64,000 bases of DNA from Eubacteriales bacterium (lineage in GTDB: Bacteria; Bacillota; Clostridia; Oscillospirales; CAG-272), in contig JBGVHJ010000014.1 in assembly GCA_045122255.1 (NCBI GenBank), positions 36,719-100,718 of the forward strand. Direction: 5' to 3'. The number at the start of each line of letters is the position of its first letter. The first letter of the stretch is position 1. Under the pieces are notes generated by a model that did no database searches, was not told the DNA's origin, and saw nothing but the letters and a program-made list of their open reading frames with translations. This document shows positions 2,016 to 4,718 of the stretch, piece by piece. The translations under genes were made by a program, and so were the position numbers.

Positions 2016-4718
2016 TTGAGGCGTTTTTTATCGGATTATGGTGAAAATATACGCATGGGCGCTGAGGGAGTGAGCGGACTTGTAAATCTTTCCGCGAATC
2101 TGCCTGACGGCGTGGATCTCGGCGAGGCGGCGCTGGCTTTCAATGCTATATACAGCCAAGGTAAGAGTGGCAAGGCGTTTTCTGCGGCCAAGAATATGGA
2201 GCTGCTCTCTCCCGAGCAGAGGCAGTACGCTTATAATCTCGGTATTATGGATAAAGTGCTGGATGGGGTGAGGGCGAAGAACGCAGCCGCCGAGATTTCG
2301 GGAGAAAATGACGGTAAGGTATTGCAAAAGGACGGCGTTGGTGATACAATAAAAGAAAATGAACAGGGGGATATAAATAGTGAACAACAAAAAGCAGAAC
2401 GAGCAGAAGCACAGTTTGCTTTTGACGGAGGAGCAGAAAGCAGAACTTTTGAAAGCACGAGCGGAACGCGAACAGAGGATGAAGACAGATCCCGAGTACA
2501 GGGCGAAGATAGAGGAACGTCGCAGAAAGTTGGAGGAGCACTCACCTCTGATAGGAGAATCAATAGACTAAATCCTAAAGAAATCAATGTTGATCTTTCT
2601 GATACCTTGCAGATAGACAAAGAGCACCTTCTTTATGAGCCTCAGCAAAAGTTAATCAATGAATACGGTATTGAGTGTTACATAATAAAAGAACGCTCAT
2701 GGCACAGGTCGTCTCCTGCCGGTACATATAAAGGCAAAGTTTATATGTCGGAAATCTTTTCGGGGAATTTGCTTGCAACGGTAGTGCCCCATGAAGCTAC
2801 ACACGCAATGAAGCAACTTAATTATCAGCCTTACCTTGATTTGATAGATAGGCTTCCCGATATGTTAGATATGTCTGCAGAGGCTACAGAAGATATGTTC
2901 AATTGGATAGCGGGACATTGTGGTTTTGATTTCCTTGCTATGAGCAGATCGGAAGGTATGCACTTTTATGACGAAATGAATGCTGCAATATATGGTTTCT
3001 ACAAAACCTCGATGTGGGAAAGTGACGGATATGCAGAATGGGTACCTAATGCTTTCTATGACTTTGATTCATATATCGCAGAGCTTGAGGCGATTCACGA
3101 GCAATTCAAAAAAGATATTCAAGCGCGCAAGGTTGAATCATATAAGCAAGTTGATAGCACTACCTCCGATGTGCAGCAGGCGAAAAGCGATCAGGCAAGC
3201 TCATCGGAGTGGGATGCAGAGAGGATCAAGGACGGAAAGGTAGAGAAGGCGAAGCCGATTTCTGAGATCATCGAGCGGATCCGTCACGATTTCGGGATCC
3301 ACATCACCAAGGGTCACGTGCGCGGCAAGGGTGTGCTGGGCCAATACAGCCGCAAAAATCACGGCATCAGAACGAAGATCGCCAACGATCTTCCAACAGT
3401 GGCACACGAGCTTGGTCACGCTCTTGATCAAAGATACAGTCTTACCGACAAGAGCAAGCTGACGAAGGAGATGCGCTCGGAGCTTATAAACGCCCTGGGC
3501 GACCTGAAGGACTCATACAAGCAGAATTTGTGGGTAAGTGAGGGCTTTGCGGAGTATCTCAGACGTTTCCTTCAGAACAGAGACGACGCGACGCGGAGCT
3601 ATCCCGAATTTACAAAGCATTTTCTTAATTCGCTGTCAAAGGCTGACCGCGTTCTTATGGACACCTTTGCCGACGAGATCAACGCATATTACGCTTTGGA
3701 TGCTGATACGGCGACAAGCTCGATCAGGCTCCGCGAGGAGGGAACACCCGACGCGAGAACTGCTCTTGAAAAGGCGAAGGAGATGGGCGACGGTGTATAT
3801 CAGGCTTGGGTGGATGCTAACCACGGTATAAGGCTTTTTGACGAGGCTACGGGTGGAGACACTTACAAGCTTGCCGCAAATGCGGCTTACAGCGACGCTA
3901 TTGCCGGGCAGATCATTACAGGGGATCTTACCGACGCTAACGGTCAATACGTAAGAATACTTACTGTTTCTTCGTTAGAGAGAGAGTCATTGCAAGTCAC
4001 AAAGTTAATTGGAGTTTCAAAAGATAAATTTGAATCTAAATATGGAACAAAAAAAGAAAGAGACACAGGTAGTCTGAGGGGACAAACTGATAAAACAGAC
4101 ATCCCGAACCCTTCTACGAAGGCTCAGCACACCGCTGGTGCTCTTTCCACTATTAGTATACCACAAGAAAAAGGAAATGTCAACAAGAAAATTTCGACAA
4201 ATTCTGAAAATGCAAAATCGGATGCTTGGTCTAAGGTTGATGAGATCATAGAATCTACGATCGACGACGTGCTGGTGCAGTACGGCCAGGGAAAGGCTCA
4301 CGGCGACGTAGTGACGGTTTTGCGTGACGGTAAGGAGGAGTTCTGGAAGATAAACGATCCTAAGAAGTTAAATTCTCTCGATGTTGAATTTAACAAAAAG
4401 AACCGAGTTATTGTGGCGCAATTTGCTTCAAAGGAAGCCATTGCAAATACTCCACATTCTCCTCGGTTCAATAACAGTATACCACCTTCTGGCGAAAATG
4501 TCAATAGGAATTTTTCGACAAATTCAGAAATGGGCTCCCATTCTATCTCCACTATGCTTGAGGCGAGGTTTGGGCCCGGTGTCAATGATTATCTCAACAC
4601 CTTTATAAAGGACCTGAACGGCGCGAAGGCGCAGAGTGGCGGCGTTGTAGGCGGAGCGTTTTTTATAAATATATATACCATGTTAACCATTTCTTCATTA
4701 TTTTTTGTTATAATATAA
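2016..4718 (+). CDS. Mosaic or remnant phage-type large polyvalent protein with two zincin (HExxH) metallopeptidase-like domains; true start uncertain (possibly ATG 2055)
   Basis: VVPHEATH and TVAHELGH...EGFAE motifs; two 'SIPxxxxNVNxxxS' linkers typical of polyvalent-protein module ends; alternating GC-rich and AT-rich segments; no good RBS at TTG 2016. Confidence 0.6.
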   Translation: MRRFLSDYGENIRMGAEGVSGLVNLSANLPDGVDLGEAALAFNAIYSQGKSGKAFSAAKNMELLSPEQRQYAYNLGIMDKVLDGVRAKNAAAEISGENDGKVLQKDGVGDTIKENEQGDINSEQQKAERAEAQFAFDGGAESRTFESTSGTRTEDEDRSRVQGEDRGTSQKVGGALTSDRRINRLNPKEINVDLSDTLQIDKEHLLYEPQQKLINEYGIECYIIKERSWHRSSPAGTYKGKVYMSEIFSGNLLATVVPHEATHAMKQLNYQPYLDLIDRLPDMLDMSAEATEDMFNWIAGHCGFDFLAMSRSEGMHFYDEMNAAIYGFYKTSMWESDGYAEWVPNAFYDFDSYIAELEAIHEQFKKDIQARKVESYKQVDSTTSDVQQAKSDQASSSEWDAERIKDGKVEKAKPISEIIERIRHDFGIHITKGHVRGKGVLGQYSRKNHGIRTKIANDLPTVAHELGHALDQRYSLTDKSKLTKEMRSELINALGDLKDSYKQNLWVSEGFAEYLRRFLQNRDDATRSYPEFTKHFLNSLSKADRVLMDTFADEINAYYALDADTATSSIRLREEGTPDARTALEKAKEMGDGVYQAWVDANHGIRLFDEATGGDTYKLAANAAYSDAIAGQIITGDLTDANGQYVRILTVSSLERESLQVTKLIGVSKDKFESKYGTKKERDTGSLRGQTDKTDIPNPSTKAQHTAGALSTISIPQEKGNVNKKISTNSENAKSDAWSKVDEIIESTIDDVLVQYGQGKAHGDVVTVLRDGKEEFWKINDPKKLNSLDVEFNKKNRVIVAQFASKEAIANTPHSPRFNNSIPPSGENVNRNFSTNSEMGSHSISTMLEARFGPGVNDYLNTFIKDLNGAKAQSGGVVGGAFFINIYTMLTISSLFFVII
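2322..2350 (+). promoter_or_regulatory. Internal sigma-A promoter embedded in the polyvalent ORF
   Basis: TTGCAA-N17-TACAAT with extended -10 TG; RBS AGGGGG (2365-2370) and GTG (2380) follow. Confidence 0.6.
2380..2571 (+). CDS. Overprinted 63-aa charged helical protein in an alternative frame
   Basis: Has its own promoter and RBS 9 nt upstream; sequence is protein-like (LTEEQKAELLKARAEREQRMKTDPEYRAKIEE). Confidence 0.55.
   Translation: MNNKKQNEQKHSLLLTEEQKAELLKARAEREQRMKTDPEYRAKIEERRRKLEEHSPLIGESID
4049..4150 (-). ncRNA. Candidate antisense structured sRNA 1 (three-way junction, U-tract end)
   Basis: GAAAGAGCACCAG pairs with CUGUGUCUCUUUC, followed by U7; inner CUGAG/CUCAG stem; hairpins CCUUCGUAGAAGG and GGGA...UCCC; promoter directly upstream. 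Confidence 0.5.
4155..4183 (-). promoter_or_regulatory. Antisense sigma-A promoter 1 within the polyvalent ORF
   Basis: Minus strand TTGACA-N17-TATACT with TG extension. Confidence 0.7.
4395..4471 (-). ncRNA. Candidate antisense hairpin sRNA 2 (U-tract end)
   Basis: GAACCGAG/CUCGGUUC closing stem plus UGUGG/CCACA, GCAAU/AUUGC and GCUUC/GAAGC stems, followed by UUUUU. Confidence 0.5.
4476..4504 (-). promoter_or_regulatory. Antisense sigma-A promoter 2 within the polyvalent ORF
   Basis: Minus strand TTGACA-N17-TATACT with TG extension. Confidence 0.7.

Follow-up and report, generated by a model that had tools for sequence, protein, structure and literature searches.

The stretch of DNA analyzed here, 64,000 nt of a contig from a Eubacteriales bacterium (JBGVHJ010000014.1 of assembly GCA_045122255.1; hereafter the window, whose positions are used as coordinates throughout), carries near its left end part of a gene for a polyvalent protein, one of the giant multidomain proteins of mobile elements. 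Within this host gene, on the same strand and in the +1 frame, lies a second open reading frame (ORF) that encodes a small protein of 63 aa and ends where the first of two HExxH domains of the host protein begins (Table 1). The comparisons described below indicate that the ORF at 2380–2571 is very probably a real gene nested in the host gene.

Table 1 The nested small gene, its candidate signals and its host gene in the window.
Feature	Position	Strand	Remarks
Host ORF, polyvalent-protein fragment, 900 aa	2016–4718	+	Two HExxH domains
Sigma-70-like site, TTGCAA-17 nt-TGnTACAAT	2322–2350	+	9/12 plus TG; the same bases are host codons for LQKDGVGDTI
Shine-Dalgarno-like AGGGGG	2365–2370	+	9 nt ahead of GTG
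Nested small gene, 63 aa	2380–2571	+	+1 frame relative to host; GTG start, TAA stop
Zincin-like metallopeptidase domain 1	2571–3215	+	Host frame; HEATH at 2790–2804; predicted partner of the small protein
Second HExxH domain	3243–3674	+	HELGH at 3405–3419; clade differs from domain 1

A sequence-only reading of this DNA had described a promoter-like site, a ribosome-binding site and a GTG codon that opens a charged, helix-like ORF just upstream of the first HExxH domain, and all of these elements are present. The promoter-like site is made up of TTGCAA (2322–2327), TG (2342–2343) and TACAAT (2345–2350), a TAA at 2374–2376 in the small-ORF frame stands just ahead of the GTG at 2380, and the small ORF ends about 220 nt before the first HExxH motif (HEATH). 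Taken alone, the ORF and the Shine-Dalgarno (SD)-like and promoter-like motifs of the window copy are not above chance. The nested ORF by itself is unremarkable because the surrounding DNA is purine-rich (GC skew of 0.34 and AT skew of 0.48 at 2301–2500); the host gene contains four same-strand alternative-frame ORFs of at least 60 aa, and promoter-like sites of equal match occur 9 times in 3.5 kb, where shuffled sequence would give 4.7 ± 2.6. Beside the nested ORF, three more such ORFs of 75–97 aa lie within the host gene at 2980–3243, 3538–3831 and 4381–4608 (+). The case exceeds chance because of comparative evidence, namely a conserved alternative frame, a conserved SD and start codon, and a conserved position beside a peptidase domain.

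When the genus was searched in six frames with the host protein and the 63-aa peptide as queries, relatives were identified in G015, G022 and G047, and 15 residues are invariant among the four aligned copies, including the L-T-E-E-Q and T-D-P motifs. A profile of the four alternative-frame peptides finds 47 matches at E ≤ 1e-3 among 1.84 billion representative proteins, most of which are separate proteins of 46–83 aa. Their N-terminus is basic, their core follows the pattern TEE...AEHE.+M.TDPEY+..WEK, and they close with an acidic stretch, for instance NDSIED. A wider profile gathers 109 clusters of 28–146 aa, all unnamed or 'hypothetical', and about 100 database members are called as separate 50–70-aa proteins beginning with M. 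The window copy has the best match to the family hidden Markov model (HMM) of all ORFs tested (E 2.4e-24), and a database protein of 63 aa that is 73–75% identical to it has the same length and ends. An AlphaFold2 model of the small protein (mean pLDDT 78.8, above 90 over residues 21–50) predicts a two-helix hairpin, with helices at residues 17–36 and 38–54, a turn at the T-D-P motif, and an acidic, less ordered C-terminal tail, in line with the helix-like character read from its sequence. Nine profile matches are longer than 200 aa, and the eight inspected are unrelated repeat proteins without HExxH, so that no polyvalent protein with the hairpin in frame was seen among them.

The family has no named counterpart in the collections searched. 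Pfam gives no match to the small protein at E ≤ 0.01 and only scattered weak matches at E ≤ 1 (the best, DUF3340, in 3 of 25 family members), NCBIfam gives weak single matches only, PHROGs contains nothing better than E 0.057, and the ESM Atlas returned no usable match. A Foldseek search of the PDB produced a single row, epsilon antitoxin, at a meaningless E of 8.2, and none of 588 matches to a small-protein pattern in viral contigs could be confirmed. Among metagenome contigs the sole locus (L029) was rejected as a motif-only match within an unrelated 151-aa protein; together with L026–L028 and L038, which are likewise unrelated proteins that have only the word MKTDPEY or ETDPEY in common, it was left out of all counts. 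The family is also rare, with members in 2 of 399 genomes of a class sample, 5 of 401 of an order sample and 4 of 39 of the genus. The hairpin core (..M.TDPEY/F+..) is found as 2 to ~8 tandem repeats in the otherwise unrelated proteins P0004, P0005, P0027, P0039 and P0045, and may be a more general repeat unit.

The nested arrangement recurs. In a series of further loci, the host frame around the small +1-frame ORF is open over hundreds to thousands of codons; it spans 715 aa in L030 (in G614) and at least 734 aa in L015 (in G047), 884 aa in L036, 904 aa in L037, 1033 aa in L033, 2250 aa in L024 (G399) and 2502 aa in L040. A more distant nested member is present in L004 (in G015; E 3.5e-6 against the family HMM), and in all of these loci except L033 the host frame leads without interruption into the same HExxH domain. 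So that the choice of loci would not depend on the feature to be counted, we also searched 185,579 species genomes with zincin motifs only, which returned 22 loci. In 14 of them a family HMM match (E < 0.01) lies directly upstream, each time in the +1 frame; 13 of these matches end 0–93 nt before the zincin match, and that of L058 extends 75 nt into it. These loci are partly dependent, as L044 corresponds to the G015 locus and L056 to the G614 locus, L055 is almost identical to L056, and L058 and L063 come from one metagenome-assembled genome. Of the 401 genomes in the order-level sample, two contain the zincin clade and both have the small ORF, and the placement directly upstream of this one clade is kept at small-protein identities down to ~30%. 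Conservation of the alternative frame had been proposed as a check on the nested gene, and the frame is indeed open in every nested relative examined and in 14/14 of the HMM-positive zincin-first loci.

Some of these loci show further variations on the arrangement. L063 contains three tandem family members (306–479, 540–713 and 774–944; +) all three in the +1 frame relative to a single open frame that extends over at least 394 aa; at least two start with the same AAGGAGG and ATG, and the last ends right at the zincin match. By eye and with no statistic attached, five of the eight zincin-first loci that lack a family HMM match (L045, L053, L057, L061 and L054) have another small +1-frame ORF ~300 nt upstream of the zincin match at 2001, with an acidic tail of the type LYMG[AD]P.. 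or ..DD.E, and these ORFs may be divergent versions of the same device. Two members lie outside big ORFs (L025:3952–4245 and L034:986–1381), and there the host-like −1 frame is still open for 98 and 132 aa, respectively; an LPD23 fragment sits ~2 kb upstream in L025. Both look like relics of nested copies that survived the decay of polyvalent genes.

To compare the frames, we used 15 nested copies (105 pairs). Mean amino-acid identity is 0.40 in the small-ORF frame versus 0.25 in both the host frame and the third frame, and in conservation the small-ORF frame outscores the host frame in 100 of the 105 pairs. Among the genus relatives it is more alike in every divergent pair (0.68 versus 0.38 for the window and G022). 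Nucleotide differences fall 1328/1195/1666 at small-ORF codon positions 1/2/3, and the Nei–Gojobori (NG86) median of omega, the ratio of nonsynonymous to synonymous divergence (dS), is 0.28 for the small-ORF frame versus 1.48 for the host frame in the five pairs with unsaturated dS; separate pairwise values agree (0.19–0.35 versus 1.0–2.6). These comparisons argue that purifying selection acts on the small-ORF frame and not on the host frame across the nested stretch, where the host frame appears to evolve like a non-coding frame and yet is free of stops. The suggestion that the main frame is here a low-complexity linker, as expected in dual coding, fits this absence of constraint.

How the host frame stays open can be seen from the codons of the small genes. 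When these were resampled synonymously according to window codon usage, the host frame was open in only 0.000–0.005 of trials per copy, which rules out that it is open through amino-acid composition alone. When each copy's own codons were permuted, it was open in 0.009–0.44 of trials, and the small genes avoid T-ending codons ahead of codons that start with A or G. The host frame is kept open on purpose, with much of its openness residing in a general avoidance of T-ending codons.

The signals for expression differ in how widely they are kept. An SD core (GGAG, GAGG or GGGG; mostly GGAGG) lies 5–11 nt ahead of an ATG or GTG in 18/18 nested copies, with the start codon placed at the usual N-terminus of the family, and the ribosome-binding site claimed for the window copy is thus a conserved one. 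The promoter claimed alongside it did not fare as well; the hexamers are there in the window, but a promoter-like site occurs within 150 nt upstream in just 6 of the 18 nested copies, versus 58 of 518 control windows. Four of those six sites are one motif, TTGCAA-17-TACAAT, in the linker LQKDGVGDTI (window, L015, L004 and L047). Within the genus, its four copies vary only in the spacer, at host-synonymous sites plus one D-to-G change, an invariance that is not significant because there are just four close copies. The SD and start codon are features of the family, and the promoter is at best a feature of one subgroup. The linker peptide that bears this motif, GKVLQKDGVGDTIKEN, stands at module boundaries in the window (2313–2363), in L004 (two copies in one G015 gene), in L015 and in L047, and may mark a recombination joint between cassettes.

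The domain encoded immediately downstream has the sequence features of a zincin-like metallopeptidase. H74, E75, H78, D134 and E135 of domain 1 are invariant in 8/8 sequences, and its AlphaFold2 model has a pLDDT of 87.1. Foldseek finds nothing for this domain at E ≤ 0.001, and a sequence search of the PDB returned no solved relative, one chance-level row aside. The best fold match is the N-terminal region of Certhrax (Z 7.2, root-mean-square deviation of 4.5 over 170 aligned residues), followed by lethal factor (Z 6.7 and 5.4), PPEP-2 (Z 5.7) and ArdC (Z 4.5), all below the level of a clear match. The nearest solved folds of the modelled domain thus appear to be lethal-factor-like and Pro-Pro-endopeptidase zincins, at modest scores.

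Modelling of the small protein with the zincin domain had been suggested as a check on their relation, and the complex passes its controls while covering the catalytic residues. The ipSAE is 0.79 (0.79, 0.78 and 0.83 in individual runs) versus 0.00 for the best of three controls, the partners have a pLDDT of at least 76, and at least 62% of contacts are common between runs. Among 80 solved complexes 58 attained this mark, as did 2 among 110 mismatched pairs, counts that are only rough because our own alignments were used. On the domain side the modelled interface includes H74, E75, H78, H116, D134 and E135, and on the small-protein side it includes residues 12–30 and 44–51 and the whole tail (53–63), which in the model places the hairpin and acidic tail over the HExxH cleft. 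Tail-like motifs that could make the tail a mimic of a cleavage site were found in none of three host-frame proteins. Judging by this model, the small protein probably binds the zincin-like domain encoded downstream of it, and we tentatively propose, at rather less than even confidence, that it is an inhibitor of that peptidase. The sequence-only reading had proposed an inhibitor, immunity protein or regulator of the adjacent peptidase module; the link to the peptidase is now backed by strict co-location and by the complex model, and inhibition is what we infer.

Several observations weigh against this picture. The nested copy of L033 precedes an ART-like domain rather than a zincin, 8 of the 22 zincin-first loci have no family HMM match, and the relatives in L031 and L032 are N-terminal parts of longer proteins. 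The copies are related to one another, and the counts given above are not counts of independent events; the start codons were picked partly for a preceding SD, which inflates the 18/18; and the omega estimates come from 28–33 codons and few unsaturated pairs. The score of the complex is the model's own confidence, obtained with shallow alignments (8 and 25 rows). For the window copy itself, GTG with AGGGGG is weaker than the GGAGG and ATG of most relatives, and the sole RNA-library signal is a 250-nt contig from run X20 over 2318–2514, for which DNA carry-over is possible; with six differences and an unlike flank, this contig shows just the sequence of a relative within an RNA library. Lastly, the host gene is 5′- and probably 3′-truncated (900 aa compared with at least 1500–2500 aa in relatives), and the window copy may therefore sit in a decaying element.

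Part of this evidence would also fit a nested gene that is real but whose product does not act on the neighbouring peptidase, and serves instead in regulation, as an adaptor for secretion or packaging, or as an independent anti-defence effector. The small gene would then travel with the zincin cassette merely through its physical embedding in the linker, and common descent would explain their co-location with no functional link. The member ahead of an ART-like domain is in line with this, as are those outside big ORFs (L025 and L034) or fused to other C-terminal parts (L031 and L032), and the hairpin-like 'DPEY/DPEF' units repeated in unrelated proteins. We nevertheless consider it unlikely, as the complex model passes by a wide margin and covers the catalytic residues, the placement ahead of one zincin clade survives down to ~30% identity of the small protein, and the apparently stand-alone L025 and L034 keep a host-like frame open in the manner of relics.

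The state of the host gene raises a separate question about the window copy. The open host frame in the window spans 921 aa, a database copy of the gene (P0140) starts with ATG at 2055 and encodes 887 aa, and the HExxH motifs lie at aa 259 (HEATH) and aa 464 (HELGH). Pfam has no match to the 900-aa protein. Its relatives are parts of open frames of at least 1500–2500 aa; L024, for example, also carries Pfam AAA_34 and Helicase_C_4. The start of the host ORF adjoins an AT-rich gap and a divergent BspA-type leucine-rich repeat gene (1243–1899, minus strand), whereas in L002, a paralog on another contig of this genome, the matching sequence is found in the interior of a 2255-aa frame. Contigs from DNA runs of three other samples depart from the window at ~1994–2008, and one rejoins it at 2076, as would be expected if the 5′ end of the host gene had been rearranged in this genome.

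It could be argued from this truncation, together with the contig departures, the GTG start and weaker SD, and the decayed copies seen in relatives (G015/L016 and G022/L014), that the window copy is a non-functional relic whose open frame and motifs persist only as decay has not yet reached them. The sequence of the nested stretch makes this quite improbable. Neither the small protein nor the zincin domain has lost any family-invariant residue, the window copy is the best-scoring ORF against the family HMM, and the 63-aa database protein retains its length and ends at 73–75% identity. Near-identical DNA covering at least part of the stretch is present in animal-gut metagenome runs (20 rows from 12 studies, four runs compared over 1950–3300), and the DNA contigs of runs X2, X6 and X12 have zero differences from the window across 2303–2567 and a single change, at 2568, which alters the amino acid in neither frame; over 2254–2302, X2 shows 10 differences.

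Programmed frameshifting, by which a +1 shift out of the host frame would yield a truncated N-terminal product with the hairpin at its end, or a −1 shift close to the end of the small ORF would join the hairpin to the peptidase as a prodomain, is very improbable: although SD-like sequences can stimulate frameshifting and the hairpin is encoded, prodomain-like, immediately N-terminal to its predicted target domain, all 18 nested copies have a start codon at the usual N-terminus with the SD at initiation spacing, a TAA stands one codon ahead of the window GTG, no slippery heptamer common to the copies was seen, about 100 database members are called as separate 50–70-aa proteins starting with M, and no in-frame fusion occurs among the 47 profile matches (with 8 of the 9 longer than 200 aa inspected).

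The best overall explanation, which we favor with some reserve, is therefore a nested +1-frame gene whose product binds, and may inhibit, the peptidase encoded next to it. Across ~190 nt the small gene is the selected frame, with the host frame reusing its bases only as an unconstrained, stop-free linker. The small gene would be translated from its own SD and GTG, off either the host mRNA or an internal transcript, and in the predicted complex helix 1 packs on the zincin domain while the tail covers the HExxH cleft. Bound in this way, the small protein may restrain the peptidase inside the cell that makes it, up to the export or packaging of the polyprotein. Nesting would keep every peptidase cassette tied to its partner through domain shuffling, and a partner that stays behind at transfer would set the timing of processing.

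This proposal bears on what is known of polyvalent proteins, which are giant mobile-element proteins with one or more HExxH metallopeptidase (MPTase) domains, proposed in the main text of Iyer et al. 2017 (PMC5512222) to process the polyprotein either ahead of its packaging or once it has been delivered. The host ORF and its relatives resemble the proteins described there, and differ from that architecture in that a partner gene overprinted on the linker does not form part of the description; the terms 'linker', 'overlapping' and 'frameshift' are absent from the main text of that paper, supplements aside. In the literature on nested or overprinted genes, 'polyvalent protein' is absent among the matches listed, and a search combining 'polyvalent protein' with 'overlapping gene' gave nothing relevant, judged by title and abstract. 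A plasmid collection searched with the host protein returned no match, and in a phage collection only the second HExxH domain was matched, in 21 records at 31–35% identity. The matched proteins come from Vibrio, Shewanella and Thalassomonas phages; several carry the annotation DNA methylase subunit and are probably polyvalent proteins that owe this name to one domain. No nested family member was found upstream of this second HExxH domain, and the window as a whole has one family HMM match.

The closest analogues in kind appear to be comS inside srfA and the Rz/Rz1 pair of phage lambda. The comS gene encodes a peptide of ~50 aa with its own ribosome-binding site, out of frame within the srfA nonribosomal peptide synthetase operon of Bacillus subtilis; ComS acts on the MecA/ComK competence switch, a pathway unrelated to its host protein. 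As in srfA, a small peptide with its own ribosome-binding site is encoded here in another frame of a giant multidomain ORF of a Firmicute. comS depends on transcription of its host gene, and we know of no family-wide conservation of comS across hosts. Unlike ComS, the small protein described here is predicted to act on the protein encoded by its host gene and is conserved family-wide across hosts. In lambda, Rz1 lies in the +1 frame of Rz. The two systems are alike in having a small same-strand gene wholly embedded out of frame, on a mobile element, with partner products that bind each other (predicted binding in our case), as judged from the account of these embedded spanin genes in PMC6139136. 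The same account presents Rz/Rz1 as a periplasm-spanning lysis complex, whereas the small gene described here is embedded in that of a giant multidomain polyprotein, and its product is predicted to target the active site of a peptidase. The overlap here also falls in an unconstrained linker, unlike that of Rz/Rz1, and there is no sequence or fold relation between the systems.

The predicted mode of binding has parallels of its own. Zymogen propeptides and protein inhibitors of zinc metallopeptidases can occupy the catalytic cleft, and like them the small protein, a short helical element with an acidic tail, is predicted to cover such a cleft, that of a zincin with its HExxH motif. Unlike a prodomain, it is a separate polypeptide from another reading frame. 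PDB sequence and Foldseek searches found no sequence or fold match between the small protein and known inhibitors; in the Foldseek search with the zincin domain, the jannalysin zymogen (4jix) is a weak fold neighbour only.

A more specific version of the proposal, which we regard as possible but doubtful, is that each peptidase cassette in this clade of polyvalent proteins carries a 'stay-behind' inhibitor: the small protein would cap the cleft in the donor and be stripped off as transfer or packaging unfolds the polyprotein, with self-cutting into effectors occurring only in the recipient. If so, overprinting would be a device that makes protease and inhibitor inseparable during domain shuffling, and the divergent +1-frame ORFs upstream of other clade members would be further versions of it. 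It offers a testable answer to the question of how the self-processing peptidases of polyvalent proteins stay silent until delivery.

Bacterial same-strand nested genes with good support are few, and many divergent elements of gut Clostridia have kept this one under clear frame-specific selection, even as gene callers miss it or leave it nameless. The 'low-complexity linkers' of giant ORFs can thus hide the truly selected frame, which matters for annotation and for selection analyses. If binding and inhibition hold, the small gene and the zincin domain beside it would form a compact protease/inhibitor module whose small protein belongs to a new sequence family.

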